Shown piece after piece: positions 5,083 through 49,695 of a stretch of 64,000 nt of DNA. The position numbers and the translations under genes were made by a program. Each line of letters starts with the position of its first letter. The stretch's first letter is position 1. The notes under the pieces were generated by a model that was given only the letters and a program-made list of their open reading frames with translations, was not told the DNA's origin and made no database searches. Source of the stretch: Deltaproteobacteria bacterium (GTDB taxonomy: Bacteria; Desulfobacterota; Dissulfuribacteria; Dissulfuribacterales; QOAL01); contig JALSNW010000044.1 of NCBI GenBank assembly GCA_026986785.1, positions 13,520 through 77,519 of the forward strand, given 5' to 3'.

Positions 5083-5178
5083 GAAAAAGCAGTTCCGTTT
5101 CTTTTTCCGCCTGTGATTTTTCAGTAGACGACGACTATATTTTCTGGGTGGCGACATAACAATAAGAGGAGGCAAGCA

Positions 5179-13924: not shown

Positions 13925-14792
13925 AATGGGGGATCTGCCTCTTTTGATCCACGAGCCAGACACTGCCCACAGGCTTTGGCGGCGTGCAAGGGATGTGTTC
14001 AGGCGAGTGATATTCCTCCAGCGATCCGAAAGGCTCATGGAGATTGCCAAAAGACAGATCCTTGTAAATGACGAGACAGGTTCATCCTTTCCCAATGGCC
14101 AGATATGGTGGGCCAAAAGCCTTACCAGGGCCAAGGGTAGGATGCAGAGGCATTGGTATGCAGACGAAGGGGGTATTTACCTCTGCATAGCAATCTATCC
14201 ATCCCTATTCCAGGAAGATGTGCATTTCTATAACATTGCAACAGGGCTTTCCATCTGCCAGATACTCAGAGAATGGGGGGTTGATGCCCACATACGATGG
14301 TTGAACGATGTACTCATAGAGGGAAAGAAGGTTGCAGGCGTCCTGGCAGAAACTATCGTAACTCCAAGACTCAATGAACACTACCTCCTGACAGGCATAG
14401 GAATAAATGTCAACCAAAACGCCTTTCCAACCGAGATTACACAACACTCCACTTCCCTGTTGATAGAGACAGGAAGGAAATGGCCCATCATGGAACTCGG
14501 CACCCATATCATTTCGAGGATTGCACTCAATTTTGCCCTGCTTCACGAATGGCAGGCCACATCCCTTTCAGAAAGTTACTCAACTCGGCCAAATCCCGTG
14601 ATAATGGCCTATAAAGGCCTGAGTAACCTTATAGGTAGACGGATTCGCTTTGGCACAGACCTGGAAAAAGAGAGGGGCACGGCTGCCACTGTATTGGACA
14701 TCTTGCCAGATGGCAGCCTGGAGTTACTCCTGGCAGATGGGACCGAGGCAATAATCAATACAGGGGAGATCCGTTACGATACGGGATCATGA
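13925..14792 (+). CDS. birA: Biotin-protein ligase-like (BirA, no DNA-binding HTH), divergent motifs
   Basis: KGRMQRHW, RWLNDVLIEGKKVAGVL, GIGINVN, C-terminal SH3-like domain; start uncertain (ORF opens at 13791). Confidence 0.75.
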
Positions 14793-15929
14793 GGAAGCTT
14801 GGAATCTGCATTCTGAGCAAGATATCCCTCTATGAACCTGTCTATATTGCCATCCATGACATCGTTGACATTTCCTGTCTCTATCCCTGTACGGTGATCC
14901 TTGACCATCTGATATGGATGCATGACATATGAACGGATCTGACTTCCCCAGCCGATATCCTTCTTCTGATCATGGAGGCGCTGTTTTTCCTGGTTTCTCT
15001 TTTCCCGTTCCAGTTCATACAGCCTGGCCTTCAAGATCTTCATGGCTATGGCCTTGTTCTTGTGCTGACTCCTTTCATTCTGACATTGGACTACTATGCC
15101 TGTGGGGATATGGGTGATCCTGACGGCTGAACTCGTCTTGTTGACATGCTGGCCGCCAGCACCACTTGCCCTATAAGTATCGATCCTGAGGTCTTTTTCA
15201 TCGATCTGCACATCTATGGATTCGTCCAGCTCTGGCACCACGAAAACCGAGGCAAAAGAGGTATGCCTCCGCCCAGAGGCATCGAATGGAGAGATCCTGA
15301 CAAGGCGATGTACACCAGCCTCTGATTTCAGATACCCATAGGCAAACTGCCCCTTGACGAGGAAGGTGGCACTCTTCACCCCTGCCTCTTCACCTGGCAT
15401 CAGGTCCAACATGCGCACCTCAAACCCCTGGCGTTCACACCACCTAAGGTACATGCGAAGAAGCATGTCTGCCCAATCCTGAGCCTCAGTGCCCCCGGCA
15501 CCTGAATGTATGGTTACTATGGCGTTGTTGATGTCGTGCGTACCAGACAATAGCCTTTGGAGCTCGACACGCCTGATCTTCTTTTCAAGTCTCGACAGCT
15601 CTGTACGAACCTCCTGGAAGGTCACCTCGTCATCCTCCTCCTGGGCCATCTCCAAGAGGAGTTGCAGCTCTTCTAACTTTTCCTCCAGCTCTGCCACGGC
15701 CTCCTTCTGCCTGGTGATCAGGGAGCGTTCTTTCAAGAGCTCCTTGGACCCCGGACTCTCCCAGAAACCCTGCTGCAGCATCTGCTTCTCTATTTCAACA
15801 AGACGCTGATCGAGTTTTTGACGATCAAAGATAACCTCTTAATATAGCTATTTTTTTTGCAACGTCCGCAAGCCTACTCTTCAAGTCCTGAATATCGATC
15901 GATACCTGTTTCTGTTGTCTATCTACCAT
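14774..15929 (-). CDS. prfB: Peptide chain release factor 2 with programmed +1 frameshift
   Basis: SPF and GGQ motifs; ATG at 15929, then AGAGGT-TAT-CTT-TGA (15839-15825); +1 frame joins the 14774..15781 ORF. Confidence 0.96.
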
Positions 15930-22759: not shown

Positions 22760-25453
22760 TTAATGAAACACAGGCGGTTCTGACAGGTCAAGCCCCAGGG
22801 CAGCCTGTTCCAGAAGTTGTTGCCTCTTCCGGATAAAGCCTTTTGATTTTTCCAAGACTGCTGGCAGATCTAGGATAAGGGCAATGGAGCCGTCTCCCAG
22901 GATGGTCGCCCCTGCAAAGCCGGGCTGATCCATCAAGTAGTCCGATAGGGGTTTTATAACCACTTCCTGCTGGCCTATGAGGGCATCCACACCCAGACAG
23001 GCATCCAACTCACCAAGTCTTACCCTGACTGCAAAGAACTTCTCAGGTTCTGCAGGGGCCCCTGTCCCCCTGAAAATCCTTCCCAGCCGAATGAGGGGGA
23101 GTGTCTCCTGGCGTTTCGATATCATCTCATAGCCCTCGACACTGCTCACATCACGAGATGTGAGGCGAAAGGTCTCATAAACAGCTGAAATGGGCACCAC
23201 CATAGACTGCCTGCCCACCTTTACTGTAAGTCCCTTTATGATCGCAAGGGTAAGAGGGATCCTCAGCATGAACCTCGTGCCTTTGTCCTTTCGGGATTGA
23301 ACCACCACTGTCCCTCCTATCTTTTCTATATTTTTCTTGACCACATCCAGACCAACACCCCTTCCAGAGATGTCCGAGACAGAACCGGCAGTAGATATGC
23401 CTGGGATGAAGACCAGATTCCATATCTGCTCCTCGTTCATTTGTCTCAGGGCATCTGGGCTGATGACCCCAGAAGAAATGGCCTTCTTTACAATCAGATC
23501 CCTATCCAGCCCTCTTCCATCGTCTGATACGGAGATAATGACGAAGTTCCCTTCCTGGCTGGCAGAAATGGAAAGTTGTCCCTTGGAGGGCTTACCCTTC
23601 GTGTTCCTCTGATCTGGGGGTTCTATACCATGGTCTATGGCATTTCGGATTATGTGCTGGAGGGGATCTGCCAACTGCTCCATCACCTGCTTATCAAGGG
23701 CTGTATCCATACCTGTGAGCTTAAGCTCCACCTCTTTACCGAGTTTCTGGCACAGGTCCCTGACCATCCTGGGATATCTGTTGAACAGAGAACTTACCGG
23801 GAGCATACGCATGCGCATGACCCCATCCTGTAATTGATGTACCACCCTTTCCAACGCAGCCACGCTCTCAGTGAAATCAAGGAGCACGTTCTTCAGGGGC
23901 CTCAATTCCTGGACAGGCATCCGCCTCTTGTCCCTCCACCTGGAATACAACCCCTTCAACAAGATGGTGGATTGGGCCATGGATGATCTCAAAACTACGA
24001 GCTCTGCCACATCTTCCAAGAGATTTTCTACCTTTTCGAGATTCACCCTGACCAATTGACCCTGGTTACCTCTCGTATCCGAAGCTCCAGCAAAGCCCTT
24101 TAGGGGACTCAATTCTTTGCCGAATTCCTTGCCAAAATCATTCTCTTTATCAAGAGGTAGACCGTCTTGACCCATTCCCTCTATGGGAGCTGGCTGGGAA
24201 GCCTTGTCCTGGTGCCTCTGCTCGGCTACAGGCTCTCCATCTTCGAATATGGTATCTATAGCTGCATCGAAATCATCCAGCGACTCTATCCCAAAGGGCG
24301 AATCCGCTTCTTTCTGTCCAGATGCATCGATGTCCTGGAGACCATCCACGTGTTCCATCTCCGGGGTTTCAAACATCTCTTTCAGATGTGGCAGCCTGTC
24401 GCACAATCTCTCCCATAGGCCAATAAAAACCTCCCTGTCAAAATGGGATTCCCCGCTCAATTGTTCTGTTATGCACTCTTCCCATTCCTCGAGCAGATGC
24501 ACGACGTCCATATAGTCCATGTAGTTGGCAGAGGTCTTTAACTTGTCCACAGCCTCTTCACACTCTGAAATCCATTTCTCGTCCATATCCGCAGGAGGAT
24601 TGGCCAAAGGTGCCCCTACCTCTTTGAAAAAATCGAGAAAGATATGGTAGAGCTCTTTATCCTCCTCGGCCTCCACACCAGTGCCACCCAGATAATCGTC
24701 TGGCACCACATCATCCAGCTCTATCTCCTTGCTGAGGGCATCCCTGAGCTTAGAGCGCATCGCCCTTATGAATTCATCAGATCCATCTCCTTGGAAAGAT
24801 TCCCAAAGCCCTTGCCTGATATCACTTATGGCACTACGGAGCTTCTCCTTTCCTATGTAATTGGCCACACGCTCCATGTCCTGAAGCAGGATGTCCAGTG
24901 TACCTTGATCAGCATCTTGATCTTCGATGACCTTGACCAATTGTCCGTAAAGGCTTCTCATCTCCTGGGCAAAGATATTCAAAAGCTCCAGGTCTTCATC
25001 GGATTCTTCTGGCCCAGGATCTCCTTCTGGCCTTTGCTCGAAAACAGCACCGGCGGCCAAGGCTGTCTCTCCACCTACAGTGTTCTTCAACTGTTCAAGA
25101 AGGTCTTCGACATCCAGAGTCTCTTCGTGATTCTGTGCCACGTCCTCAAGTAGTTCCTTGAACCTGTCCACACACCTGAATATCGCATCAAATGCCTGCT
25201 GGTCCAGCCTGCGGCTGCCTTGACGGGCCTCGTCGAATAGGTTCTCGATAGCGTGGGCAAGAGCTGCTATTCTGCTCAAACCCATATAGTTGGCAGCCCC
25301 TTTTATACTGTGCATGTTCCTGAAACAATCATTTAAGATGGAGGAATCATCGGGCTGCTGTTCCAGCAGCAACAAGTTTGGCTCGAATTCCTGGAGGTTT
25401 TCTTCCACCTCCACAATAAAATCCTGCCACATTTCCTGATCAAAATCCTTCAT
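22760..25453 (-). CDS. cheA: Chemotaxis-type histidine kinase CheA with extra degenerate Hpt repeats
   Basis: FRNMHSIKG Hpt; RMLPV...YPRMVRD; HIIRNAIDHG, DDGRG, SGRGVGLDVV; C-terminal CheW-like domain. Confidence 0.95.
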   Translation of the reverse strand: MKDFDQEMWQDFIVEVEENLQEFEPNLLLLEQQPDDSSILNDCFRNMHSIKGAANYMGLSRIAALAHAIENLFDEARQGSRRLDQQAFDAIFRCVDRFKELLEDVAQNHEETLDVEDLLEQLKNTVGGETALAAGAVFEQRPEGDPGPEESDEDLELLNIFAQEMRSLYGQLVKVIEDQDADQGTLDILLQDMERVANYIGKEKLRSAISDIRQGLWESFQGDGSDEFIRAMRSKLRDALSKEIELDDVVPDDYLGGTGVEAEEDKELYHIFLDFFKEVGAPLANPPADMDEKWISECEEAVDKLKTSANYMDYMDVVHLLEEWEECITEQLSGESHFDREVFIGLWERLCDRLPHLKEMFETPEMEHVDGLQDIDASGQKEADSPFGIESLDDFDAAIDTIFEDGEPVAEQRHQDKASQPAPIEGMGQDGLPLDKENDFGKEFGKELSPLKGFAGASDTRGNQGQLVRVNLEKVENLLEDVAELVVLRSSMAQSTILLKGLYSRWRDKRRMPVQELRPLKNVLLDFTESVAALERVVHQLQDGVMRMRMLPVSSLFNRYPRMVRDLCQKLGKEVELKLTGMDTALDKQVMEQLADPLQHIIRNAIDHGIEPPDQRNTKGKPSKGQLSISASQEGNFVIISVSDDGRGLDRDLIVKKAISSGVISPDALRQMNEEQIWNLVFIPGISTAGSVSDISGRGVGLDVVKKNIEKIGGTVVVQSRKDKGTRFMLRIPLTLAIIKGLTVKVGRQSMVVPISAVYETFRLTSRDVSSVEGYEMISKRQETLPLIRLGRIFRGTGAPAEPEKFFAVRVRLGELDACLGVDALIGQQEVVIKPLSDYLMDQPGFAGATILGDGSIALILDLPAVLEKSKGFIRKRQQLLEQAALGLDLSEPPVFH

Positions 25454-25468
25454 GACACATACCTCTTG

Positions 25469-25828
25469 TTAGCGCTTGCCAAGCCCATCCATGATGTGGC
25501 TCAATCTTTCAGAATCGTCCTTTCCAAGGAAATCAATGGCCCCCAACTCGTTGGCCATAGAAATAACCTCTGGATCAGTAATCAGGCTCATGAAGAGAAT
25601 CCGCGCCTCTGGATCGACCTCCCGGATCATACCAGCAGCCTGGATACCATCCACACCTCTCATGGTAACATCCATAATCACCAGATCTGGGCGAAGCTTC
25701 TTGTAAAGGTCAAAACCTTCTGCACCATCCCTTGCAGTGCCTATCACATCGTGCCCAGCTTGTCTGACTATGTTGCCAATCCTCTTTCTCATGAAGCTGG
25801 AATCATCAATAATTAAGACAGTAGCCAT
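25469..25828 (-). CDS. cheY: Single-domain response regulator CheY
   Basis: IIDD, IMDVTM, FMS, GK; lies directly upstream of cheA. Confidence 0.85.
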   Translation of the reverse strand: MATVLIIDDSSFMRKRIGNIVRQAGHDVIGTARDGAEGFDLYKKLRPDLVIMDVTMRGVDGIQAAGMIREVDPEARILFMSLITDPEVISMANELGAIDFLGKDDSERLSHIMDGLGKR

Positions 25829-25846
25829 TTTATACCTTGCTATTTA

Positions 25847-27268
25847 TTATTTCTTGCCAAGAAGAGGGACTATCTCTTCTGATGGTGCAATCTGCACATC
25901 TAACCCAAGGGCCTTAATCATCTTCAATGGCTCGGGATAGAGACATGTGTCCGGGTCCTGGAGTATTATGGCCCCTGCCTTGGATGCCACGCTCTCGAGA
26001 CCCTGCACCATAGCCAGATCTATCCCGGACAGGAGAACCACGGTGAGATCCTTTTCAAAGATGGAGGCTAGTCCATGAAGAAAAAGATCAGGCTCCAAGC
26101 TGTCCAGCGACATGTCTCTATAAATACCTGCTCCGGTTTCATCGGCCTCTACCTTCCATCCCTTGTCGAGCCCAGATATCCAGGCCTGGTTACTGAGAAG
26201 TGGCGCACCTGTCTCCAAGGCCTTTACGGAAAAGGAACAGTAGCTGTCCATATAATTGGCCAGAGAAGCGGAAAAATATTGGCACATCTGCTGAAACACG
26301 ATAAGGCTTGTGGACTCCCCAAGTTGGAGCTCTGGCAAGATCTTCTGGATCTCGAGCAGACCTCCAAACCCCCCCATGATTACGATCAACCTATCGGCCG
26401 GCATACCTGGCAGAGCCTTTTCCCCTGCCATCTTGGGATTTCTGGCCCGCCTGATGTTTCTTATCTGGAATTCTGTGGCGGTCTTGATAGCATTCCCAAG
26501 CCGCTTTTCAAAAAGGTCCCAGGAATCACCTGCACCTGGTTTTGATACAAAATCCACTGCACCAAGACGTAGATATTCCATGATCTTTGCCGTGTGCTTC
26601 TCATTGAAATTACTCACCAGAAGCACTGGTGCTGGAGATCGGATCATGATGTGCTTGAGGGCTATATCCCCGGCCATGACTGGCATATTTATATCCAGGG
26701 TAATAATATCTGGCCTAGTATCGTCCAAAAACTCCAGGGCCTCCTTACCGTTTCGCGCCTCTGCTATAACCTTGGCAGAGAGGTTCTCCGTCAATACATC
26801 ACGCAGCCTGGAGATAAAAAATCTGGAGTCGTCTACAACCAGTACACCGGGCACCTGTTCGACATCGGTGTCCGAGGCGGAACCCATCTCATCCTTTCTC
26901 CTAAGAGACTCTATCAAAAGAAAATTCCACGGCACTTCAATGGTATGTTCTGGGGGTGATTCGGGAAAGAAGCGAAAGGTGCCTTGATGGAGGCACATGA
27001 TCTCATAAAAGGCCTCCTCTCCTTTCTTGTCCATTATCTGTGCGTGGACCACCTCGCCGGAAGAAAAGAATATCTCTCCCCTTGCCCCTCTGGTCTGTAC
27101 CAACAGTTTCCGATCCCTGTTCTCAAGACAGGCAAGCTGTACCAAATCGGATAGGTTTATATCCACCATGAAACCACTGAAACCCGTCTCAGTACCAGTG
27201 TTTGTATCCGAAACGTTTGTTTGTATCAGTTCCTGTGAATCAAGGTCGAGAACAGTCATACCTTCCAC
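25847..27268 (-). CDS. DUF4388(PATAN-like)-REC-pseudo-CheB fusion
   Basis: GFSG..LSDLVQL..GEIFF..GEVVHA..GEEAFYEI DUF4388 pattern; intact REC (VVDD, LDINMP, KP); CheB-like C-terminus without catalytic triad. Confidence 0.8.
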   Translation of the reverse strand: MEGMTVLDLDSQELIQTNVSDTNTGTETGFSGFMVDINLSDLVQLACLENRDRKLLVQTRGARGEIFFSSGEVVHAQIMDKKGEEAFYEIMCLHQGTFRFFPESPPEHTIEVPWNFLLIESLRRKDEMGSASDTDVEQVPGVLVVDDSRFFISRLRDVLTENLSAKVIAEARNGKEALEFLDDTRPDIITLDINMPVMAGDIALKHIMIRSPAPVLLVSNFNEKHTAKIMEYLRLGAVDFVSKPGAGDSWDLFEKRLGNAIKTATEFQIRNIRRARNPKMAGEKALPGMPADRLIVIMGGFGGLLEIQKILPELQLGESTSLIVFQQMCQYFSASLANYMDSYCSFSVKALETGAPLLSNQAWISGLDKGWKVEADETGAGIYRDMSLDSLEPDLFLHGLASIFEKDLTVVLLSGIDLAMVQGLESVASKAGAIILQDPDTCLYPEPLKMIKALGLDVQIAPSEEIVPLLGKK

Positions 27269-28341
27269 TTGCTAAGCCTGCCAGCAATCTCGGCAGAGCC
27301 ACTACTTTCTGCATTAAACTTGTCCATGATATGAAGGGGCAAAAATGGGGCAAGGCAACTGGACGGGTTCTGAACGAGGAGTGTGCCTCCTCCTCTGAGC
27401 ACCTCTTTTGCTCCGGTCATGCCATGGCTGTTGTCACCAGAGACAAAAACAGCGAGACAATCCCTTCCAAATGCCTCACTGGCAGAAAGGAGGATGAGAT
27501 CGATTGCCCCTTCATTGTCTGCCTTTATCGGCCTTTGTCTTACCAGCATGTCCCACTCGGCCCCATCCTTTTCAAAGGTGCCGGTCTGGTCACTGGCAAG
27601 AAAATATACACTTCCTGGCATGAGGCGCACCTGCTTCTCTGGCACAACCAAGGGGACGGCGGCAAAGGGACGCAGATAATCTACAAAGGCATTGAGATTT
27701 TCCTTGGAGGTACCCAGAGACACGACCACGGGGATATCCATGGCCCCTGAAAGATGGGGAACTATGGAGAGAATAGACGAATACCCGCCAGTAGAGCCAT
27801 GAATTACGGCAAGTGCCTTAACGTTCTCGCCGGATCTCTCCTTGTTTTCGGTCTGCATCGATCTTCTAACCGGCCTGATGCGTAGGTAACGGGCGGCCTC
27901 CACCTGGACCCTGGAGGCCCGCTTCAGCCTGGAACATAAAAGCTCGGCCTGGCTCTTTAGCTCCTCGTCTCCGTTTCTCGTTGGCTTTTTGAAAAAATCC
28001 ACGGCCCCGAATCTGAGGGCCTCAAAGGTCACCCTGGAACCGTCTCCTGTAAATGCACTTACCATGAGAGTGGGAATAGGATACCTGACCATGATATTCT
28101 TCAACACAGTCAGGCCATTCATCCCTGGCATGTGCACGTCCAGGGTACAGACATCAAAGCCACCTGCCGAAAGCTTGTTTAAGGCCTCTTGGCCATTCAA
28201 GGCCCTTGATTGAACCTGAATCTGATCGTCTTCTCCTAATATCTGTTCCAGGGCCTTACACATCATTGGGGAATCGTCAACGATAAGGACCTTGATCTTT
28301 CCGTCAATACCCTTGCTTGCTGTCAACATCTCTTGCGCCAT
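27256..28341 (-). CDS. CheB-like protein (REC + degenerate methylesterase)
   Basis: IVDD, LDVHMP, FFKKP; GSTGG kept but His and Asp motifs lost; start uncertain (ORF opens at 28389). Confidence 0.8.
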   Translation of the reverse strand: MAQEMLTASKGIDGKIKVLIVDDSPMMCKALEQILGEDDQIQVQSRALNGQEALNKLSAGGFDVCTLDVHMPGMNGLTVLKNIMVRYPIPTLMVSAFTGDGSRVTFEALRFGAVDFFKKPTRNGDEELKSQAELLCSRLKRASRVQVEAARYLRIRPVRRSMQTENKERSGENVKALAVIHGSTGGYSSILSIVPHLSGAMDIPVVVSLGTSKENLNAFVDYLRPFAAVPLVVPEKQVRLMPGSVYFLASDQTGTFEKDGAEWDMLVRQRPIKADNEGAIDLILLSASEAFGRDCLAVFVSGDNSHGMTGAKEVLRGGGTLLVQNPSSCLAPFLPLHIMDKFNAESSGSAEIAGRLSKWKV

Positions 28342-28405
28342 ATCTGACCATCCACTGTTTTTCTCATCTTGCAAACAAAGCAAAACCATCTATCATAGCC
28401 ATCCT

Positions 28406-29476
28406 TCAGGCCTTGAACCCTTTTCTGAGGGCCAATTGTCTTGAAAAGGCCTTTAGACTATTCCAAAGGGCCTGTTCCGTATCGAAAGGCCTTGCCAGCT
28501 CCAGTTCTATAGCCTTCTTTGCGAGCCCGCCTGATGCACACTTGTCTGGAGCCAAGGCATAGACCCTGCCGCCCCTGTCAACTACTGATGCAAGACCGTA
28601 AAATTCATCCCCGGGCTGACCCCCCAATATGCAGATATTCAGGTCTTCTCCAAAGATCTCGGCAGTTTTATGCAGGAAGGTCTCCAGGCCCATAACACCC
28701 TCACCACACTCAAGATAGACCTCCCCGGCCTCATCCATCCTCATCTCAGGCAATCCATACTTTCCAACCAAGCTGCAACACCCACTATAGAGACGCTGTG
28801 CCGTTACGAAGGCCTCTGCACAACCAGTTATGGCATCGAGCTCTCTGGCATAGGCACGTAAAACAGCCCTTGACATGTCCTGGATACAAATACAGGCGGT
28901 ATGTTTCAAAGGAAAGAGCGCAGAGGCGAGACGAATGAAACTGCTTACAGCCCCTTGAAGGGCAACCACCACGAGTAGCCCCGAGGGCGCATGTTTGTCT
29001 CGATCCTTGATATGAACAGGGCGTGGATTTGTCTTGACCGCCCTCTTGATGGCCCTGGGATTTATGCCTGCTGCCACCTTCAATGTCCTTACCAGGTCTG
29101 CGCCACTGTCATGGATGTCATCCGAGACGGTTCCAGAAGGCTTTGGGAAAAAATCCACGGCTCCGAGACTGAGGGCCTCAAAGGTGATCTTGCCCTGATC
29201 AGCCAGGCCGCTCACCATGACCACAGGCAAAGGATCTCTTATCATGATATGTTTTATGGTGGTTAGCCCATCCATTATGGGCATGTCCACATCGAGGGTT
29301 ATCACATCGGGACGCAATGTCTTTATGGCATCCAAGGCCTCTTTCCCATGCTTGGCCACTCCCACTACCTCTATATCGCCCGAGTCCGACAAGATCTCTA
29401 CCAGGGCCTTTCTCATGAAGGCAGCGTCGTCTACTACCATGGCCTTTATGCTTCTACCGATGTTTTCTGCCTGCAT
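28406..29476 (-). CDS. CheB-like protein (REC + highly degenerate methylesterase)
   Basis: VVDD, PDVITLDVDMP, GAVDFFPKP; ALQGA and QDM replace ASTGG and QHM. Confidence 0.8.
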   Translation of the reverse strand: MQAENIGRSIKAMVVDDAAFMRKALVEILSDSGDIEVVGVAKHGKEALDAIKTLRPDVITLDVDMPIMDGLTTIKHIMIRDPLPVVMVSGLADQGKITFEALSLGAVDFFPKPSGTVSDDIHDSGADLVRTLKVAAGINPRAIKRAVKTNPRPVHIKDRDKHAPSGLLVVVALQGAVSSFIRLASALFPLKHTACICIQDMSRAVLRAYARELDAITGCAEAFVTAQRLYSGCCSLVGKYGLPEMRMDEAGEVYLECGEGVMGLETFLHKTAEIFGEDLNICILGGQPGDEFYGLASVVDRGGRVYALAPDKCASGGLAKKAIELELARPFDTEQALWNSLKAFSRQLALRKGFKA

Positions 29477-29477
29477 A

Positions 29478-30329
29478 TCAGCCTCCCAGGGCCTTTGACC
29501 AGCCCTCCTCGAGGTGTTTTTTCTTGTCCCGTATCTTCTTTGCTATTGCCTGCACTTGTGGGCCTTTTAGACCCAAGGCCTTTGGGAGTTTTATCTTGTC
29601 CGCAAGCCAATTGGAGCTCCAACCAATCCCCAACTTGTGACAAAGTTGATCGGCAAGAAATACCACGGCGCAAGCCTTCTCTTCAGGGCCAGCACTCCTT
29701 GGTCGATGGTGATAGCGTACAGCACTAATCATCCTCTCATTCAGATTCCATTTTGTGGCTATGTAGGCCCCTGCCTCTGTGTGACTGAATCCATATTCTT
29801 CTTCCGCCATGTAGAGGGGTATCTGCCTTTCCTCTTGGAGCTTCAATATCCTTTTGAGGTCCTCAGGGAAAAAGGAACACATCAAGAATCTTCCAATATC
29901 GTGGATTAGCCCCATGGTGAAACACTCCTCTGGCTCCATGTCACCCAAGAGGGTGGCTATCTCCATGGATACTGTTGCCACGCCTATACAGTGCAACCAC
30001 ATTTCCCTGGCAGGGAATTCTTTAAGGTCTGCGTTCTGGCCAAATGCCTGGGTCAGGGAGATCCCTATCACCAGATTGCGTACCTCTTCGAACCCCAGTA
30101 CCACTACAGCATGGGAGATGGTCTGAACCTGTCCACTCATGCCATAGGCTGGAGAATTTGCAACCTTCAATATCTTGGTAGCAAGTACCGGATCCTGCCT
30201 TACAATCACCTCGAGGCGCTTTGCCGAGGATGCAATACTGTCCATTTCCTCCAATACCTTTTGTAAGGTATTGGGCATTGGAGGTAAATCCTTTATCTTG
30301 TCCAGACGTTGTGCTATGGATGGAGGCAT
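29478..30329 (-). CDS. HDOD domain protein
   Basis: LPPMP, DPVLATKILKVANS, WLHC, GLIHDIG, HTEAG, W.L...VRYHH. Confidence 0.93.
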   Translation of the reverse strand: MPPSIAQRLDKIKDLPPMPNTLQKVLEEMDSIASSAKRLEVIVRQDPVLATKILKVANSPAYGMSGQVQTISHAVVVLGFEEVRNLVIGISLTQAFGQNADLKEFPAREMWLHCIGVATVSMEIATLLGDMEPEECFTMGLIHDIGRFLMCSFFPEDLKRILKLQEERQIPLYMAEEEYGFSHTEAGAYIATKWNLNERMISAVRYHHRPRSAGPEEKACAVVFLADQLCHKLGIGWSSNWLADKIKLPKALGLKGPQVQAIAKKIRDKKKHLEEGWSKALGG

Positions 30330-30390
30330 CTATTTTTTCCCTTTTCGGCTCTTACAGGGCATGATTCCAGCCCCTTTTCTTCTTATTTAT

Positions 30391-30417
30391 TTATCGACAA
30401 TCAAGACCAGCCCTTAA
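30391..30417 (-). promoter_or_regulatory. sigma28 (FliA)-type promoter for the HDOD-cheB-cheY-cheA operon
   Basis: TTAA-15 nt-GTCGATAA on the minus strand vs consensus TAAA-N15-GCCGATAA. Confidence 0.65.
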
Positions 30418-30446
30418 ATTGTCCGACCTCATAAGCCATCGATCCT

Positions 30447-30473
30447 TCAATTTTTTCCACGACTGTCCGATAA
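30447..30473 (+). promoter_or_regulatory. sigma28 (FliA)-type promoter for the mglBA operon
   Basis: TCAA-15 nt-TCCGATAA. Confidence 0.65.
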
Positions 30474-30540
30474 GGCCTTTAGAGCCTTCCGGTAGGATTC
30501 AGAACCTTGCTCGGTTAAAAAGTTTTGAGGTCAGAAAATC

Positions 30541-30942
30541 ATGGCAGACATTATCTTGACTGGTCCTGCGCTCGAACAAGCGAGAACTCAGATTGATGAG
30601 GCCCTCGTACAGGCAGGAGTCCATACGGTCTTATTGATAGATCACGCAGGAAACGTAGTTGCCAGTTGTGGTCAAAACAGAAAGGACCTGGACATGACAT
30701 CCCTTGCCGCCTTGGCCGCTGCAAATTTTGGTGCTACATCGCAAATGGCCAAGCTTATTGGCGAAGACGACTTTTCTCTGCTGTTTCACAAGGGGAAGAG
30801 AGACAGCATCCACTTTGCAAAAGTGGGGCAGGAGATGATTCTCATAACCATTTTTGGCGATGAGGTCTCCCTCGGACTCGTAAGATTAAGGGTGGCAGAA
30901 TTGACGAACAACATAGAAAAGATATTTGGACTGGGTAAATAA
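30541..30942 (+). CDS. mglB: Roadblock/LC7 protein MglB (GAP)
   Basis: LLIDHAG, SLAALAAANFGAT..MAKLIGE..F..LFH.G, SLGLVRLR; adjacent to mglA. Confidence 0.92.
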   Translation: MADIILTGPALEQARTQIDEALVQAGVHTVLLIDHAGNVVASCGQNRKDLDMTSLAALAAANFGATSQMAKLIGEDDFSLLFHKGKRDSIHFAKVGQEMILITIFGDEVSLGLVRLRVAELTNNIEKIFGLGK

Positions 30943-31560
30943 ATGGCACTGATAGACCTCAGCAAAAGGGAGGTGCACTGCAAGATCGTCTATTATGGAC
31001 CAGGGCGGTGCGGCAAGACAACCAATCTCCTCTACATATATAATTCTATGAACAGTAATGCCAAGGGCAAGATGCTCACCATCGAGACCAAGGGAGATAG
31101 AACCCTCTTCTTTGACCTCCTTCCCCTGAACCTTGGAAAGATAAAAGGCTTTGACATCAGGATCCAGCTATATACCGTGCCTGGACAGGCAATCTATGAG
31201 GCTACCAGGAAGCTCGTCCTCAAAGGGGTCGATGGTCTTGTTTTCGTAGCGGATTCTCTGCGCGTGAGAAGATCCAAGAACATAGAGAGCCTGGAAGACC
31301 TGAAGAAAAACCTCCGGGATTACAATTTAGATATTAATAACATCCCTCTCGTTCTCCAATACAACAAAAGAGACCTTGCCAATTCCCCCATACCCACCTT
31401 GAGCGTGGAAGAGCTGGAAACAGACCTGAATAGGGAACTTGGTGTGGAAGCGTTCCAGGCAGCCGCTACCAAAGGACTGGGGGTTTTCGAAACCCTTAAG
31501 GATATCAGTAAGAAAACCGTGCGCTATGTAGCCACGAAACACCTTGTAAAACCAAAATAG
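30943..31560 (+). CDS. mglA: Small Ras-like GTPase MglA
   Basis: CKIVYYGPGRCGKTTNL, DRTLFFD, LYTVPGQ, GVDGLVFVADS, QYNKRDL. Confidence 0.96.
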   Translation: MALIDLSKREVHCKIVYYGPGRCGKTTNLLYIYNSMNSNAKGKMLTIETKGDRTLFFDLLPLNLGKIKGFDIRIQLYTVPGQAIYEATRKLVLKGVDGLVFVADSLRVRRSKNIESLEDLKKNLRDYNLDINNIPLVLQYNKRDLANSPIPTLSVEELETDLNRELGVEAFQAAATKGLGVFETLKDISKKTVRYVATKHLVKPK

Positions 31561-31580
31561 TTTATTAGGGAGATGATCCA

Positions 31581-33197
31581 GTGAAAGAAAACAACTCCAT
31601 CCCTGAACCAGAAATCTTTACCTCGGAAATAGAAGATACCATAGACGACCTCTTCAAACCCTCCAAAAAAATAGAGATCGATCCTCTGACCCAGGAGATT
31701 AAAGAGGTTGCAAAAGAGGCAGACGATTCTCCTGTGGAATTTGAACTTGCCCAAGAAGGAGATGAAATAAAACCAGAAGAGCCAACAGCCCTCTTGCTTG
31801 AAGATCAAGAACCCCAGGACAACCAAGAGGAAGAGGAGGCCTTGCTCGAACTGGAACTCGAGGTGGAAGAGGAGGCAGAAGAGATAGCTGTAGAGATGGA
31901 GCCGACACCTGAAGACACTGACCAGGGAAATAGGGTAGGGGAGATACTTCAGGAGCTGAAACAGCAGATCTTTACCATCGAATGGGAGGTGACAGAGCCC
32001 CAGATAGACCAGACCCTTGCCTTGGTAGCAGGACTCCTTGGCGCCCCAGAAATCAGGAATCAGGCCCCGGCACGTTCCCTGGTAGAACTCATGCAAAAGG
32101 TCCTCCAACACATCCAATACAGACCTGAAAAGGTCTCTGCCACTGCTCCATCGGTACTCAAAAAAGCCGTAGCCTTTCTTTTGGATTGCCATTCAGGCAA
32201 AAGTGTATCCGATGACAGGGCAGAGGGCATAGCCCAGGAACTAAAGGCCCTGTTTGACAAGGCCCAGCAAAAGGAGGAGGCCACTGTCCTGGAGAACTTT
32301 CTCCTCTTGGGCGAGAAAACAGGAGAAGACCAGGGGGCTGAAAAGGCAGAAACCACCTCCGAGATGCAGGGAGATGGTGCACCAGCCCTGGGTCCTGCTT
32401 CAACCGAAACAGAGACAACCACGGAGACAACGGGCAGTCATACCAGCAAAGAGGATCTACTCCCGGGAGAAGCCAAAAGGATCCTGCAGGCCCATCTTGT
32501 AGAGATAAAAAGATGTATAAACCGCATCGAACCCTTGGAAAAGCTCCTGGCCAAGACCCCTGGAATGGAAAAACTCCACAGTTTTCAGCATGACATACGC
32601 CAGAGACTGGAAAGGCAGCTTGAGGAACTTTCCAACCACTTCTTCGAGGCTATGGAGTTGGAACTACCTGAACCACCTCGCACCAAAACCGATTCTGAGG
32701 AATATGCCAGGGACATGAACCTTACTCCATGCCCGTGGGCCGAGCTTTTCACCATCACTTTGGATGGCATGGAGATAGGTTTTCCTGCAGACGAAATAGC
32801 CTATGTCTCAAGCCCTCCTTGGCATTCAAAGTCAGCAATCAAGAAGGCCCATAGCCTGGAGTTAAATAAACTAAAGAGCTGGCCATGGTCAAAACTCAAG
32901 GGAATGTTCAGGGGCAAACTTGCCGACTTTGACGAATCCAGCCTTTCTTCCATGAGCTTTCCTATAATCCGTCATATTGGAGGCCAGGAGCTACCTGTTC
33001 CCTCCAATTTCACAATAATACTCTTATTCAATGGACAGACAGGTGTAGCCCTTTTGACAGGTGAAAAACCAATAAGGATAAAGATCCCCAAGGATGCAAA
33101 ATGGACGAAGGAACAAGCAGATGGCCTTGAAGCTGAAATAACCACCCATGGCAATGTCATCAAAGTGGCCTCGGCCAACTCATTGAAGCAGGAGTAG
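31581..33197 (+). CDS. Acidic hypothetical protein with possible degenerate CheW-like C-terminal domain
   Basis: Glu-rich low-complexity linkers, helical blocks; C-terminal LFTITLDGMEIGFPADEIAYV...FPII reminiscent of CheW strands (inference). Confidence 0.7.
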   Translation: MKENNSIPEPEIFTSEIEDTIDDLFKPSKKIEIDPLTQEIKEVAKEADDSPVEFELAQEGDEIKPEEPTALLLEDQEPQDNQEEEEALLELELEVEEEAEEIAVEMEPTPEDTDQGNRVGEILQELKQQIFTIEWEVTEPQIDQTLALVAGLLGAPEIRNQAPARSLVELMQKVLQHIQYRPEKVSATAPSVLKKAVAFLLDCHSGKSVSDDRAEGIAQELKALFDKAQQKEEATVLENFLLLGEKTGEDQGAEKAETTSEMQGDGAPALGPASTETETTTETTGSHTSKEDLLPGEAKRILQAHLVEIKRCINRIEPLEKLLAKTPGMEKLHSFQHDIRQRLERQLEELSNHFFEAMELELPEPPRTKTDSEEYARDMNLTPCPWAELFTITLDGMEIGFPADEIAYVSSPPWHSKSAIKKAHSLELNKLKSWPWSKLKGMFRGKLADFDESSLSSMSFPIIRHIGGQELPVPSNFTIILLFNGQTGVALLTGEKPIRIKIPKDAKWTKEQADGLEAEITTHGNVIKVASANSLKQE

Positions 33198-33201
33198 AGA
33201 T

Positions 33202-35583
33202 ATGGCTGGCTTCCAGATACAGACTGAAGATTTGGCAGGCACCGATCCTGTGAGCCATGCAGAGCTGGTTGAGAGAAAGATTCAGGAAGCAGATCTATAC
33301 CTAAATCATGGCCTCATAGAAGAGGCCAGGGCGATATTGGAAGAGATACTGGCAGTACTTCCAGATGACACCGACGAGAAACTCAAAATTCTTCTGGAAG
33401 ACAAGCTGAAAGAGCTCTCAAAGAGGGATGCCCTGGCTGTAGAAAACAAAAAAGAGGGCCAAAAGGGCGAATTCTCCGAGCATGAAGAATTCCTGGAACA
33501 CTATAACAATTGCCTGGGCCTTATAGAGGCGGGTTTTTTCTCAGAGGCAGTAGAGGAGTTGAAACTGCTCGAGGAAAAGAATTTCCGCGCCGGCGAGATC
33601 AGGATAAAGATCGGCCAGCTTTATCTCAAGCTGGATATGCCATTCGATGCCATAGAATACCTGGAAAAAGGTCTCAAGGACCAGGAACTGCCCGATGATA
33701 TCAGATATGAGGCCCTCTATCAATTGGCCCTCACCCAGGAAAAGACAGGATCCGTAACAAAGGCAGCCTCGACCCTGGAACAGCTCGTCAAGCTGAACAA
33801 AGACTTCCGCAATGCAAAAGAAAAACTGGAGAGCCTAAGCCAGTCGGCCCAAAAATACGGTAGATTCTATTATCTCATCAGGACTGGCATCCTGGAGGAA
33901 GAACAGCTGGAGAGGGCGAAAGAACTGGCCAAACAATCGAAAAAGTCCATTGAGTCCGTATTGATCAATCAATTCGGTATAGAAAAGGATGAAATAGGGA
34001 ACTCTCTCAGCGAGTATTATAGGTGTCCTTTCATAGAATTCAACGAACTCGAGGTTGGCACCACACCCAAATGTATCTCTGGTATAAAGGAACACTTTTT
34101 CAGGACCACTGCTTGTGCCCCAATCAAGGAAGAAGCTGGCATGCTCCTCATAGCCTTGGATAACCCCCATGATCTCAGCAAGATCGACAATATCCAGAGG
34201 GTACTGAAGGCCAAAAGCTTTGAATACGCAGTGGCCCTCAGAGAAGATATAGATAAATTCATAGACTATTTTTATGGCAAATACAGCGTTGGTGGTGATG
34301 CTGAAGACGTATTCGAACAACTGGAGCTGATAGAAGAGGAAGAAGAGGAAATCGAAGAAGACGACAGCCTGGCATCTGATGCGGATAGCGTCGTCGTCCA
34401 GATGGCAAACCGGATAATTGAAGATGCATATACCAGGGGCGCCTCCGATATCCATATAGAAAGTCTCACGGGCAAGAGAGGGGCCTTGGTGAGATACCGC
34501 ATCGATGGCGACTGCTTGAGATATCAGAATATTCCATTGAATTATAAAAAGGCCTTGGTCTCCAGGATCAAGATCATGGCCAGCCTGGATATCGCGGAAA
34601 AAAGGCTACCCCAGGATGGAAAGATCAAATTCAGGACCAGGACAGGCCGTGTCATTGAACTGCGTGTGGCCACTCTCCCCACCACGGAAAACAACGAGGA
34701 TGTCGTCTTGAGGATACTGGCATCGTCTGAGGCCATGCCCATCGACCGCATCGGCCTCTTGGAAGACAACCTCAAAAACCTGAAAAAACTGATAGAGATG
34801 CCCTACGGATTGATACTGGTTGTCGGGCCAACGGGCTCTGGTAAGACTACGACCCTACATGCTGCCCTTGGCCATATCAACAGGCCGGAAAAGAAGATTT
34901 GGACAGCTGAAGACCCTGTTGAAATCGTACAGGATGGCCTGAGACAGGTACAGATAAAATCGAGCATTGGCCTGACCTTTGCAAGGGTACTTAGGGCCTT
35001 TTTGAGGGCAGATCCTGATGTAATAATGGTTGGAGAAACAAGGGATGAAGAAACGGCGAACACCGTGATAGAGGCCTCACTCACCGGTCATCTGGTCTTC
35101 TCTACCCTTCATACCAATTCGGCCCCCGAGACAGTAACCAGGCTCCTTGGCATGGGAATGGATCCGTTCAATTTTGCAGATGCACTCCTTGGCGTCCTGG
35201 CCCAGCGTCTGGTCAAGAGATTGTGTCCCAAGTGCAAAGAGGCCTATGAACCAAACCAAGAAGAAAAGGAACGCATATTATACGAATACGGGGAGCATCC
35301 AAACAAGCCCATCTCCCTGGAAGACCTGGATGGCATCACCCTTTACAGACCAAGAGGCTGTGGTTTCTGCAACAAAACGGGCTATAAGGGCAGGATGGCA
35401 ATTCACGAACTTCTGGTATCGGATGATGGCCTGAGAAAGCTCATCCAGAGCAAAAGCCCGGTGATGGAGATAAGAGACCACGGCCTTAAAAATGGAATGC
35501 GTACCCTCAAACAGGATGGAATACACAAGGTGCTCATGGGTGATACAGACATGAAGCAGATCCTTGCAGCCTGCATCAGATAG
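33202..35583 (+). CDS. PilB/GspE-family secretion ATPase with N-terminal TPR repeats
   Basis: TPR region aa ~25-215; ASDIHIE, EKRLPQDG, GPTGSGKTT, EDPVE, MVGETRD, TGHLVFSTLH, CPKC/CGFC zinc site. Confidence 0.93.
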   Translation: MAGFQIQTEDLAGTDPVSHAELVERKIQEADLYLNHGLIEEARAILEEILAVLPDDTDEKLKILLEDKLKELSKRDALAVENKKEGQKGEFSEHEEFLEHYNNCLGLIEAGFFSEAVEELKLLEEKNFRAGEIRIKIGQLYLKLDMPFDAIEYLEKGLKDQELPDDIRYEALYQLALTQEKTGSVTKAASTLEQLVKLNKDFRNAKEKLESLSQSAQKYGRFYYLIRTGILEEEQLERAKELAKQSKKSIESVLINQFGIEKDEIGNSLSEYYRCPFIEFNELEVGTTPKCISGIKEHFFRTTACAPIKEEAGMLLIALDNPHDLSKIDNIQRVLKAKSFEYAVALREDIDKFIDYFYGKYSVGGDAEDVFEQLELIEEEEEEIEEDDSLASDADSVVVQMANRIIEDAYTRGASDIHIESLTGKRGALVRYRIDGDCLRYQNIPLNYKKALVSRIKIMASLDIAEKRLPQDGKIKFRTRTGRVIELRVATLPTTENNEDVVLRILASSEAMPIDRIGLLEDNLKNLKKLIEMPYGLILVVGPTGSGKTTTLHAALGHINRPEKKIWTAEDPVEIVQDGLRQVQIKSSIGLTFARVLRAFLRADPDVIMVGETRDEETANTVIEASLTGHLVFSTLHTNSAPETVTRLLGMGMDPFNFADALLGVLAQRLVKRLCPKCKEAYEPNQEEKERILYEYGEHPNKPISLEDLDGITLYRPRGCGFCNKTGYKGRMAIHELLVSDDGLRKLIQSKSPVMEIRDHGLKNGMRTLKQDGIHKVLMGDTDMKQILAACIR

Positions 35584-47193: not shown

Positions 47194-49695
47194 CTATCGA
47201 ACCTCCATTTTTGATTTCTCCGACTCAGTGATCCTTTGGAGTCTTTCTACCATATCCTTGAAGCGTATCCTACCCCCAGGATTCATGTTAATCACATTCA
47301 CGCCTCCCAGGAAGCCTCTTTCCACCAGGTATTCCTTCCCCCCTTTTTTTATCAGTCCATGTAGCACAAAGACATCGTTTTGGAGGCTGCAAGAGATCCC
47401 TATTCGTTTGTAGGAAAATTTTTTGAAGAAATAGCCGAGAAAAGACACAGAGCCCTGGCCACCACCCAAGATGGACAGATTTTCCACCGCCTTGATACTA
47501 ATCTTTTGGGGCACATGAGCCGAGTCGTCATTCTCGATGACAAGGCGAAATCTCTCAGGCTGGATGCCGCTCATTACAAGGCCCTTTATCCATCCCTTGA
47601 CCACCCCAGAGACCACGCCAAAGGCCGTTGGGGCCGTGATCATCTCGAGATCAAGATGATCAAAACTGATGTCTGCACCATAACGGACGATCGGGGCGAA
47701 TGGCTCGAGCCAGATATGCGTGGCAGTAATGGTGCCCCCGGCCAACTTTGCCTTTATCTGTCCAGAAAAAACCAGTTTACCCTGCCTGAACTCTGCAGAA
47801 ATGCCCTTGGCTTCAACCTTCATCTCATAGGGGAAGTCCCTGAAAAGACGCTTGATGTCGAGATCTTTTATACAGACACCCTCCAATGCCCCCTTTTTGC
47901 TCCTCAGTTCCATCCGTATCCGATGTACACATACCTGTCCATGTTGTAGATCTAGCTCCAAGGGGCCGGCAGAGATGAGGTCCTGACAGATCTCCATTGG
48001 TACGAGGCTATTTTTGATCTCGACCTTGACACCTTCTCTCAACAGAGAAGAAGGCAAGAGGTTGTTCAAATAAAATGCCTGCCAGGAGATAGTGCCACTT
48101 TCACAGCTCTTGGTCTTGAAGGGATAGGGAAGCCGGATATGCAACCCCTTGAGTAGAGTGGCATTGGAAAAGTTTACATCACAAAGACAGTCCAAGCGCA
48201 ATACCTTGCCCATGGTACTTACACTGATGGAACCAGCAGGCTCAAATCTTGAAAGAGCCGGATGGGAATCGGAAAAAGGCTCCTTCAATAATAGATCATA
48301 CAGCTTTTCCAGGTCTCCAGAGGCCTCTAAGCTGGAGATGGAGATACGTTTCAAGATATTGCCCATCGAATGCATTGCCCCAGGGGGCAAAAGGATCTCT
48401 TTCCCTTTCAACATGAAAGGACCTTGGAGCTTTATATTCGAGACAAAGATCCCATGTCTTGAAAATCTGCCCCCTGCTGCCAAGGCCCCTTTCAAGGCCG
48501 AAAGGTCAAAAAACCAGGGATAGATCAAGACCTGCCCCCGATCCCAACTTACCTCTGCCCTCCAGGCAACCTTCTCTTTTCTGGAGATATCTCCAGCCAA
48601 GGCCAAATGGATTTTTAGATCCAGCCCCTCGAATGCATGATCCGAGTCCCTGGAGCCGGAAAGATCCCTTAGCTGCAGATCGGAAACAAGTTTCCACCTC
48701 TTGTTCCGAGGCTCATATCCAAACTCGACCCTGGTATTGGAATGATCCCCTCCTTCTGGCAAGAAGGTGATATCCATCCTCGAAAGATCTGGTGAACTGT
48801 TGAATGTATATGCAAGTGCCTTATCCAGCTCCAGTTTCACAGGAAGGTTTCTTTGAATTATACCGAAAGGCAAACAGAGCCTGCCCCTTGCTTCAATGCC
48901 CTTTTCAAGAGAGAAAAGGGCCTTGCCATCAATGGAAATCGAGCCCTTTAAACGAAACCCTTGGATCTCAGAAATGGCCTCTATATTGGGAATATTCAGG
49001 GAAAAGCCCCCTCTCAATCGTGCTAAACTGTCTGGAAAGGGAAGGTGTAGTCTCAAGTTCATGGGAACGGGCCTATCAAGCCCCTCTGCCTGGACAAGAC
49101 CTTCTATCTCCACGTTGGCATCAGCGCTGACAAAATCCAAGGATGCCGAAAGGTTTCCTTGCAGGTGCGAGTCCTCCACATTGGCCTGAAATGATGCCGA
49201 AAGGAGAGAGGAATCGTATTTTCCATTCCGGACAGAGGGTAATAGGGTTAAGCCTTGTAGATCGAGCCTTGCCTTTTGGGAAACATAGTGAATCTCTGAG
49301 TTGGTTATCTTCACATACCTCAAGAGCCCATATTGAGCATGGGAAAAATGACCAGGTTTCTCATCCCTTCTGTCTCCTGGCAAGACCCATGTCTCCATGT
49401 CATTGATCTCGATAGCCTGAAGGAAAGGAGGATGAATGCCCATACTGATCCTAAGCCTGGGAATGACCAATTTCAGGCTGTCGTTCTGAAACCTGATCCG
49501 CTCCACGAGCAGGTCCCCCCTTTTCAGGACCAAAAACCTGGAAAATTCCAGATCCCCGTCCTGCCAGTGGAGGTGCACCGGGGTCGTAATCCCCCCACAG
49601 AGAAAAAGGAACAAGCCAAGACCCAACCCAGCCAGTAGAGAGAGGCTGACACATATGACCAAAAGGTATCTTTTCAGGGGCTTTTTTCCTTCCAT
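47194..49695 (-). CDS. YdbH/AsmA-like envelope-spanning protein
   Basis: N-terminal TM anchor, long beta-rich body, C-terminal LAGG.I...DLEMIT...G.V.G...VNVI..N pattern; abuts the ydbL-like gene. Confidence 0.65.
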   Translation of the reverse strand: MEGKKPLKRYLLVICVSLSLLAGLGLGLFLFLCGGITTPVHLHWQDGDLEFSRFLVLKRGDLLVERIRFQNDSLKLVIPRLRISMGIHPPFLQAIEINDMETWVLPGDRRDEKPGHFSHAQYGLLRYVKITNSEIHYVSQKARLDLQGLTLLPSVRNGKYDSSLLSASFQANVEDSHLQGNLSASLDFVSADANVEIEGLVQAEGLDRPVPMNLRLHLPFPDSLARLRGGFSLNIPNIEAISEIQGFRLKGSISIDGKALFSLEKGIEARGRLCLPFGIIQRNLPVKLELDKALAYTFNSSPDLSRMDITFLPEGGDHSNTRVEFGYEPRNKRWKLVSDLQLRDLSGSRDSDHAFEGLDLKIHLALAGDISRKEKVAWRAEVSWDRGQVLIYPWFFDLSALKGALAAGGRFSRHGIFVSNIKLQGPFMLKGKEILLPPGAMHSMGNILKRISISSLEASGDLEKLYDLLLKEPFSDSHPALSRFEPAGSISVSTMGKVLRLDCLCDVNFSNATLLKGLHIRLPYPFKTKSCESGTISWQAFYLNNLLPSSLLREGVKVEIKNSLVPMEICQDLISAGPLELDLQHGQVCVHRIRMELRSKKGALEGVCIKDLDIKRLFRDFPYEMKVEAKGISAEFRQGKLVFSGQIKAKLAGGTITATHIWLEPFAPIVRYGADISFDHLDLEMITAPTAFGVVSGVVKGWIKGLVMSGIQPERFRLVIENDDSAHVPQKISIKAVENLSILGGGQGSVSFLGYFFKKFSYKRIGISCSLQNDVFVLHGLIKKGGKEYLVERGFLGGVNVINMNPGGRIRFKDMVERLQRITESEKSKMEVR

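Follow-up and report, generated by a model that had tools for sequence, protein, structure and literature searches.

How could a chemosensory kinase reach a polarity GTPase and, through it, a pilus-type motor? The question is raised by a stretch of 64,000 nucleotides (here called the window) on contig JALSNW010000044.1 (C44) of a deltaproteobacterial genome (2.59 Mb, 99% complete), in which a chemosensory gene arm stands back to back with an arm for MglB, MglA, a 538-aa protein that we call the adaptor, and a TPR-containing ATPase. For Myxococcus, the parts of PMC4546325 that deal with the relay from the chemosensory kinase to MglA leave it open. Our block has few parts, clustered in the genome and soluble, and one of them, the adaptor, appears to combine both chemosensory folds with a predicted MglA-docking helix. 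On balance, and with modest confidence, we favour a model in which a methylation-free Che pathway is fed by a displaced long receptor, the adaptor docks on MglA, and MglA-GTP switches on the TPR-ATPase.

Gene order and conservation of the two arms

The preliminary description of this DNA had drawn ten genes in two tight, divergent arms around a shared 211-bp spacer. We found all ten open reading frames (ORFs) in exactly this layout, with gaps of 0-20 bp or a 13-bp overlap within the arms, and assigned their domains by Pfam:

22760..25453, minus strand: CheA, 897 aa, with Hpt, dimerisation, HATPase and a single CheW/P5 domain, no REC (Pfam)
25469..25828, minus strand: CheY-like single receiver, phospho-Asp intact (Pfam)
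25847..27268, minus strand: PATAN(DUF4388)-REC-pseudo-CheB, DUF4388 at residues 32-127 (Pfam)
27256..28389, minus strand: REC-pseudo-CheB, Ser kept, His and Asp lost (Pfam)
28406..29476, minus strand: REC-pseudo-CheB, most degenerate esterase domain of the three (Pfam)
29478..30329, minus strand: stand-alone HDOD protein (Pfam)
30330..30540, no strand: divergent spacer between the arms, 211 bp
30541..30942, plus strand: MglB roadblock GTPase-activating protein (GAP), 133 aa (Pfam)
30943..31560, plus strand: MglA small GTPase (Pfam)
31581..33197, plus strand: adaptor, a putative kinase-less CheA-like protein, 538 aa (structure model and fold searches)
31617..31655, plus strand: adaptor residues 13-25, predicted acidic MglA-docking helix (register match to the MglB C-terminal helix)
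31914..32279, plus strand: P1-like helical bundle of the adaptor, residues 112-233, invariant Trp135, no phospho-His (fold search, 1i5n)
32733..33188, plus strand: CheW/P5-like domain of the adaptor, residues 385-536, with a basic Trp-rich insertion (fold search, 1b3q)
33202..35583, plus strand: TPR-MshEN-T2SSE ATPase of the PilB/GspE family (Pfam; Walker A/B, His box, zinc cysteines)

The PATAN domain (DUF4388) on the CheB-like protein of 25847-27268 and the MshEN domain of the ATPase were absent from the earlier account.

In 61 genomes of the order we called CheA orthologues from score and coverage and found one in 45, two of them split over contigs. We took 37 of these loci, picked for contig room; seven end too early, which leaves 30 informative ones. 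Both arms lie back to back in 29 of the 30, across nine families of the order, so that the layout goes beyond chance and the co-conservation on which the preliminary description turned is borne out. The divergent spacer measures 142-785 bp in 27 of the 29, the other two values being start-call artefacts. Exceptions in content are L004, which has no HDOD gene, and L025 and L029, which have no CheY; the genome of L025 carries the two arms on different contigs. The relatives belong to Thermodesulfobacteriota/Desulfobacterota (Atlas taxa), and kin are not independent in any of the genome or locus counts given in this text.

Two observations weigh against a strict tie between the arms. The separate contigs of the arms in genome G036 imply that adjacency is not required, and the right arm is often found without Che genes (L088-L094, family f2). 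Indeed, adaptor and TPR-ATPase occur without any Che gene in 7 of 20 sampled adaptor loci, and family f2 keeps the right arm with the left arm gone or shrunk to a His-less Hpt remnant. The right arm is the older of the two, phylum-wide and able to stand alone. A Che cluster of this type also neighbours mglA in separate lineages and in different orientations (L053, L052/L100, L054, L055, L184). Because the right arm so often stands alone, and yet such a Che cluster adjoins mglA in these other lineages, we infer a Che-to-MglA link and hold signalling along it to be likely.

Several loci are reduced or remodelled. At L188:11790-12602 and L189:7013-7813 (also in L113 and L118) the Che arm is lost and a 266-270-aa remnant of the CheA N-terminus lies divergent from mglB, its phospho-His changed to Gln (read in L188 and L189). 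The variant at L088:6679-12324 is missing mglB, the one at L107:9458-12040 has an adaptor with a doubled P1-like bundle, and L091 and L094 carry a CheW-like paralogue beside mglA and PATAN genes inserted ahead of the adaptor.

Might inheritance alone account for the divergent promoter that the arms have in common, while the Che system controls something else, for instance flagella or gene expression? The genome has flagellin, so CheY could act on flagella; the arms are apart in one of the 30 informative genomes, and 14 of 18 distant Che-cluster genomes (see below) are without mglA in the stretch taken. However, the genome has a second Che operon of conventional type, with CheR and an intact CheB; adjacency is kept in nine families, and in three relatives the receptor gene pair described below lies just beyond the last gene of the Mgl arm. 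We consider inheritance alone improbable. The second operon (G000:C7:1574-10736) consists of mcp, cheW, a CheA with two CheW domains and a receiver, cheR, intact cheB and cheY, and is probably the flagellar chemosensory system.

The displaced receptor, the kinase and methylation

Where does the signal enter? We found no match for a methyl-accepting chemotaxis protein (MCP), CheR or stand-alone CheW anywhere on contig C44, in agreement with the earlier statement that none lies in or beside the locus. The further claim that the system is receptor-less and self-contained does not hold. Over all contigs the genome encodes seven MCPs, two stand-alone CheW proteins and one CheR. One CheW, the sole CheR, the intact CheB and the receiver-bearing CheA make up the second operon on contig C7. 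A three-gene unit on contig C26 (G000:C26:13826-17722) encodes a CheW, a 797-aa dCache-HAMP receptor and a phosphonate-type periplasmic binding protein.

This receptor tracks the CheA of our locus. An orthologue occurs in 46 of the 61 genomes, in 45 together with the CheA; one genome (90% complete, 210 contigs) has the MCP only, none has the CheA only, and 15 have neither. A cheW-mcp pair directly follows the TPR-ATPase gene in L010, L015 and L021, which belong to three families. In a quick tree the C26 MCP groups with the MCPs abutting TPR-PilB (SH-aLRT, the Shimodaira-Hasegawa-like approximate likelihood ratio test, 99), and this receptor tree and the CheA tree agree in their family clades wherever they have rows in common, family f23 having no CheA row.

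The distant relatives tell the same story. With the PATAN-REC-CheB protein as query, 63 of 401 phylum genomes gave matches at E 1e-30, many of them ordinary CheBs, and we took the 18 distant genomes with long or PATAN-covering matches. These carry complete clusters that combine cheW, mcp and cheY with PATAN-REC-CheB and a CheA that has the same extra bundles (see below); three clusters reach the contig end before any mcp. Each of the 15 in-cluster receptors has its best match in the C26 MCP, with 169-329 bits versus at most 112 for the other six MCPs. The binding-protein gene lies 3' of the receptor gene in 9 of 30 loci and is present in two distant clusters. For the C26 CheW, assignment by BLAST failed: the in-cluster CheWs score higher to the C7 CheW because the C26 copy has diverged. 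We assign it by position: in 24 of 30 loci a CheW of the C26 type is encoded immediately 5' of the receptor gene.

From these comparisons we consider it highly probable that the C26 receptor and CheW belong to this CheA. The preliminary description had named beforehand a dedicated MCP and CheW encoded elsewhere as what would speak against its model, and the C26 genes are such a pair. That model, a self-contained switch that takes its signal through HDOD or the dead CheB domains, could draw on the lack of MCP, CheR and CheW genes in the locus and on the left arm starting with HDOD in 28 of the 29 loci where both arms are present. Co-occurrence, the in-cluster receptor matches and synteny lead us to reject the receptor-less reading, which we regard as highly improbable. 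The HDOD protein itself is an unlikely input: it is missing from the distant Che clusters, was lost in the close relative L004, and stays beside the Mgl arm where the Che genes are gone (L088, L092, L093). Having rejected it as the main sensor, we take it to be an accessory that travels with the Mgl arm.

In CheA the phospho-His is His48 of the P1 domain, and the H, N and G boxes are kept in the relatives' alignment; the phospho-Asp is intact in CheY and in the three CheB receivers. These residues equip CheA for autophosphorylation and each of the four receivers to accept a phosphoryl group. The protein carries two extra His-less Hpt-like bundles, at about residues 150-250 and 262-362, which resemble P1 weakly (hhalign probabilities 47 and 22) and one another more closely (probability 89). 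A single-sequence fold of CheA was poor (pLDDT, the predicted local distance difference test, 43), and we used it for helix counts alone.

Does the pathway need methylation? As already noticed in the preliminary description, the catalytic triad is absent from all three CheB-like proteins. The triads of the locus read L/D/D, S/G/H and G/Q/A (the last in PATAN-REC-CheB) versus S/H/D in the genome's ordinary CheB, and by these residues the three domains cannot demethylate. The S/H/D triad is kept in none of 108 CheB domains from 36 relatives of the order and in 2 of 32 CheB domains of the distant clusters. The cluster has no CheR, the only one of the genome being in the C7 operon; among the distant genomes CheR lies inside the cluster in 5 of 18, all of one family.

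The receptor points in the same direction. Its HAMP-to-tip arm measures 227 residues versus 150 in four other MCPs of the genome (77 longer). If those four are of the 38H class, as we assume, the C26 receptor has about eleven more heptads per arm and some 60 heptads. The consensus methylation site is absent from it and from 42 of 49 long-MCP rows (three rows are repeats), and is present in five of the six other MCPs of the genome. With no triads, no dedicated CheR and no consensus sites in the receptor, the methylation independence that had been proposed is probable. Cross-methylation of the C26 receptor by the C7 CheR may occur at other sites. If the system is methylation-free, it would be so on one of the longest receptor classes. 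The receptor, its CheW and often the periplasmic binding protein would form an array with this CheA, which would autophosphorylate and phosphorylate the four receivers, the dead CheB proteins then serving as phospho-gated binders.

Such a system differs from Frz, which has a hybrid CheA-REC, a cytoplasmic receptor and FrzF: here the CheA is without REC, the receptor is of the dCache and HAMP type, and the cluster is without CheR. It resembles the Geobacter alpha and beta che clusters in being deltaproteobacterial and having no mcp in the cluster (PMC2577667). Those clusters, unlike our block, carry cheW and cheR, and PMC2577667 mentions neither mglA nor PATAN.

Some distant Che clusters (L044:660-1439, 4963-5694, L038:5737-7324, L054) also encode a ParA-like ATPase and a small membrane protein with HAMP; the 255-265-aa ORF beside CheA, considered as CheR, proved ParA-like. 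In the CheA of family f69 (L038:10440-14012, L040, L046) two Hpt domains score in full and enclose two degenerate ones. In-frame breaks occur in single relatives, namely one stop in the long receptor (L066:385-2775), a split PATAN-CheB (L036:2124-3533) and one TGA in PATAN-CheB (G038:C163:360-1682), and represent assembly error or decay.

The adaptor and its predicted docking on MglA

What could carry the signal from the array to MglA? The 538-aa protein gave no match in Pfam and NCBIfam scans. The preliminary description had called it CheW-like, which is right for residues 385-536 and not for the rest. We modelled its structure from 28 sequences (pLDDT 75). A helix and a strand pair at the N-terminus lead into a five-helix bundle (112-243), after which come a hairpin (296-354) and then a beta domain (385-536), with acidic linkers. 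The bundle matches the CheA P1 domain 1i5n with Z 14.0 and a root-mean-square deviation (rmsd) of 3.9 over 117 aligned residues. The beta domain matches CheW (Foldseek E 5.6e-05) and 1b3q (Z 10.0, rmsd 2.6, 121 aligned), and all four distant adaptors scanned have Pfam CheW matches, three of them above the cut-off. We found no conserved His in the bundle and no kinase domain in the protein. From the model the adaptor would thus be a kinase-less CheA-like protein, with P1 and P5 folds but without P4.

Some results weigh against this assignment. A designed repeat protein scores Z 13.9 against the bundle, nearly as high as P1; the profile match of the bundle to P1 is weak (probability 37); some members, for example in L106, are without the CheW domain; and the hairpin shows no likeness to CheA P3 by profile (probability 1), so that we dropped the idea of a P3 domain. 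The adaptor profile gave weak helical matches only among PDB sequences (best E 0.03). A Trp-Glu motif that had looked RomR-like was likewise dropped, as the modelled bundle is of P1 type, and a RomR-type motif was not found in the genome.

Rhodobacter sphaeroides CheA3 consists of P1 and P5 without a kinase. The adaptor resembles it, the fold search having matched the CheA3 P1 structure 3kyj, in its P1-fold bundle, its CheW-fold domain and the lack of a catalytic domain. It differs in having no phosphorylatable His, in its predicted MglA-docking motif and in its place in an mgl operon. The closest neighbours of the adaptor among Atlas clusters come from the phylum and are either hypothetical or CheW-Hpt proteins. 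The literature that we covered, mostly open-access main texts, yielded no description of the block or the adaptor, though the gene tables that accompany PMC4316618 (S2) and PMC6785124 (S3) may include such loci.

The adaptor goes with mglB and mglA. Its profile matches 85 of 401 sampled phylum genomes, and in 20 loci sampled by score and contig room mglA is present in 18, directly upstream of the adaptor in 16. A second sample of 80 loci was picked on MglA alone, 73 of them with room downstream. Here mglB occurs in 34 of the 73, and the adaptor comes next in 32 of those 34; the 39 loci without mglB, mostly TPR-mglA-PATAN, never have it. In Desulfobacterales records (L138 and L142-L186, about 40 loci, e.g. 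L143 and L158) TPR, mglA and PATAN form a second conserved module without mglB or adaptor.

The GTPase itself, the only MglA of the genome, is close to that of M. xanthus (E 7e-66). It keeps R53, T54, Q82 and NKRD, its invariant columns and the residues of the allosteric pocket (L64, I67, K186, K190), as M. xanthus MglA does. MglB matches M. xanthus MglB with E 2e-23 over residues 19-129 of the latter and ends before the C-terminal exchange helix. Polarity in M. xanthus requires this helix, which binds the MglA pocket (K181, K185, L64, I67) and accelerates GDP release (PMC6785124).

Is the missing helix supplied from elsewhere? Near its N-terminus the adaptor has E18, I21, D22, L24 and F25 in register with D150, I153, D154, L156 and F157 of M. 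xanthus MglB. We examined the pattern [DE]xx[ILV][DE]x[LF][FL] in 133 mglA loci, from which three duplicates were dropped. Of 83 adaptors, 71 carry it within their first 75 residues, and most of the other 12 have a near variant. The pattern occurs in 6 of 1201 ORFs of the genome, in 0.5 of 45 sequences after shuffling versus 39 of 45 observed, and in none of 89 MglB tails. Both pocket lysines are basic in 73 of the 83 adaptor-linked MglAs. We also modelled MglA-GTP-Mg with adaptor residues 1-46 and obtained a complex score of 0.85, the best of three controls reaching 0.01. At least 93% of contacts are shared between runs, and the partner has a pLDDT of at least 78. The modelled interface takes in L64, I67, K186 and K190, with a K186-F25 pair as the counterpart of K181-F157 (PMC6785124), and lays the Ile-Glu-Ile-Asp-Pro strand that follows the helix on MglA alpha1. 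A contact of MglB with MglA helix 1 is not reported in the relevant part of PMC6785124.

Against docking it must be said that the pattern was drawn up after both sequences were seen, that a motif profile searched against PDB retrieved one unrelated match (E 0.72) and not MglB, and that both pocket lysines are also kept in 24 of 42 MglAs with neither MglB nor adaptor. The model may moreover have passed through likeness, because the MglA-MglB complex has been solved (6IZW), and the calibration of the score, in which 116 of 157 solved pairs and 2 of 215 mismatched ones came up to the mark, holds only roughly here, with our own alignments and with ligands present. Weighing both sides, we believe that the adaptor helix quite probably binds MglA.

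The helix resembles the MglB C-terminal helix and the Glu-rich helix of RomR (PMC6785124) in its acidic D/E-x-x-I-D-x-L-F motif, the same predicted alpha5/beta2-beta3 pocket and the same Lys-Phe contact. Unlike them it is N-terminal, sits on a protein of chemosensory fold and is followed by the Ile-Glu-Ile-Asp-Pro strand. The exchange-helix survey, as given in the corresponding part of PMC6785124, covered MglB tails only. The adaptor is thus predicted to supply in trans the helix that Myxococcus MglB has in cis and, from the pocket, to promote GDP release. Its CheW-like domain could tie it to the array and its His-less P1 bundle could bind a receiver, so that kinase activity would decide where and when the helix is available.

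We tentatively go one step further and suggest that this unnamed, phylum-wide family of kinase-less CheA-like proteins may be an array-coupled MglA exchange factor, with the helix acting in trans, the CheW domain in the array and P1 sensing receivers: a physical link between array, GTPase and pilus motor. If so, GAP and exchange activity, united in one protein in Myxococcus, would be split over two in much of Desulfobacterota, with the exchange half under array control, and the unannotated family would gain a function in those 85 sampled genomes. A 46-residue peptide makes the docking open to a residue-level test.

The ATPase and the output

What, finally, is switched? The block resembles the M. 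xanthus chain of Frz, MglA/MglB/RomR, SgmX and PilB, as covered in parts of PMC4546325, PMC6785124 and PMC7668184, in combining a chemosensory system, a group-1-type MglA with a coupled MglB, TPR and a pilus-type ATPase. Here, unlike there, the genes are clustered, the receptor is a transmembrane one with an estimated 60 heptads, no CheB is working, the TPR is fused to the ATPase, and the C-terminal helix absent from MglB has its look-alike on the separate CheA-like protein. Activation of M. xanthus pili by MglA-GTP runs through SgmX, a TPR protein (PMC7668184). The TPR of our ATPase would correspond to SgmX as a fused domain, with polar extension of type IV pili as the output. We judge the proposed route from MglA to the ATPase likely and rate pilus output through the TPR as somewhat more probable than not. 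Atlas matches for the TPR were generic TPR clusters only.

The motor motifs of the ATPase are intact. It could nevertheless drive a secretion or adhesion filament, or mark a cell site, instead of retractile type IVa pili, with the wiring otherwise as we propose. In favour of such an output, and against ours, the ATPase falls below the family cut-offs of both PilB (TIGR02538, 508 of 676 bits) and GspE (494 of 630), the former being passed in none of the 61 genomes nor in 14 controls, and its MshEN motif for cyclic di-GMP scores 21.3 versus a cut-off of 38. The genome also holds a second orphan ATPase of the PilB/GspE family, seemingly split over contigs (G000:C31:93860-95203 and C13:50034-50591), whose relative in L198 scores equally to PilB and GspE; this one could serve the pili. 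In other lineages a Ser/Thr kinase behind TPR, or a kinase with a domain binding cyclic nucleotide monophosphates, replaces the TPR-ATPase after the adaptor (L053:10135-12003, L102:11183-13192, L103:10899-12671). A kinase at this position (L053, L102) also fits a TPR that reads MglA and carries a swappable effector. On the other side, PilF/PilB are the best solved relatives of the ATPase (379-391 bits versus 350-354 for GspE), the separate type II secretion operon has its own GspE, and the type IVa pilus genes pilM-Q, pilC and pilT/U are present with no pilB adjoining. The TPR-ATPase gene is not adjacent to pilC or pilT. A non-pilus output seems unlikely to us.

The main rival of the favoured model is a parallel route through PATAN. 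PATAN domains are known near mglA genes (PMC4316618), and in Synechocystis PATAN binds the N-terminus of PilB1 (10.1101/2021.06.11.447907). Our PATAN-REC-pseudo-CheB resembles the cyanobacterial PatA-type regulators of that work in that a PATAN/DUF4388-REC protein is encoded in a chemosensory cluster near a PilB-type ATPase. It differs in the fusion to a dead CheB domain. By analogy the protein is likely an output onto the ATPase, whose N-terminus it would bind. If that were the whole of the Che output, MglB, MglA and the adaptor would be a separate polarity module, with the CheW and P1 folds of the adaptor as an anchor at the pole that carries no signal. The persistence of the right arm without CheA or receptor, and the REC-PATAN or PATAN genes that flank mglB in many Che-less loci, agree with such parallel inputs. 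However, the adaptor keeps its CheW-like and P1-like domains across the phylum, and the Che cluster adjoins mglA in several lineages in varied orientation, the order studied here included. Purely parallel inputs thus appear less likely to us than signalling from the Che proteins to MglA, yet are the foremost of the alternatives.

Two further observations concern the window outside the block. Positions 49674-53734 of the minus strand encode, as judged by eye, an RsbR/S/T-like partner-switching set of a PAS protein, a STAS protein and anti-sigma-type kinases. At positions 14774-15781 the ORF of release factor 2 seems to start inside the protein, which is presumably what the programmed frameshift of prfB leads one to expect.

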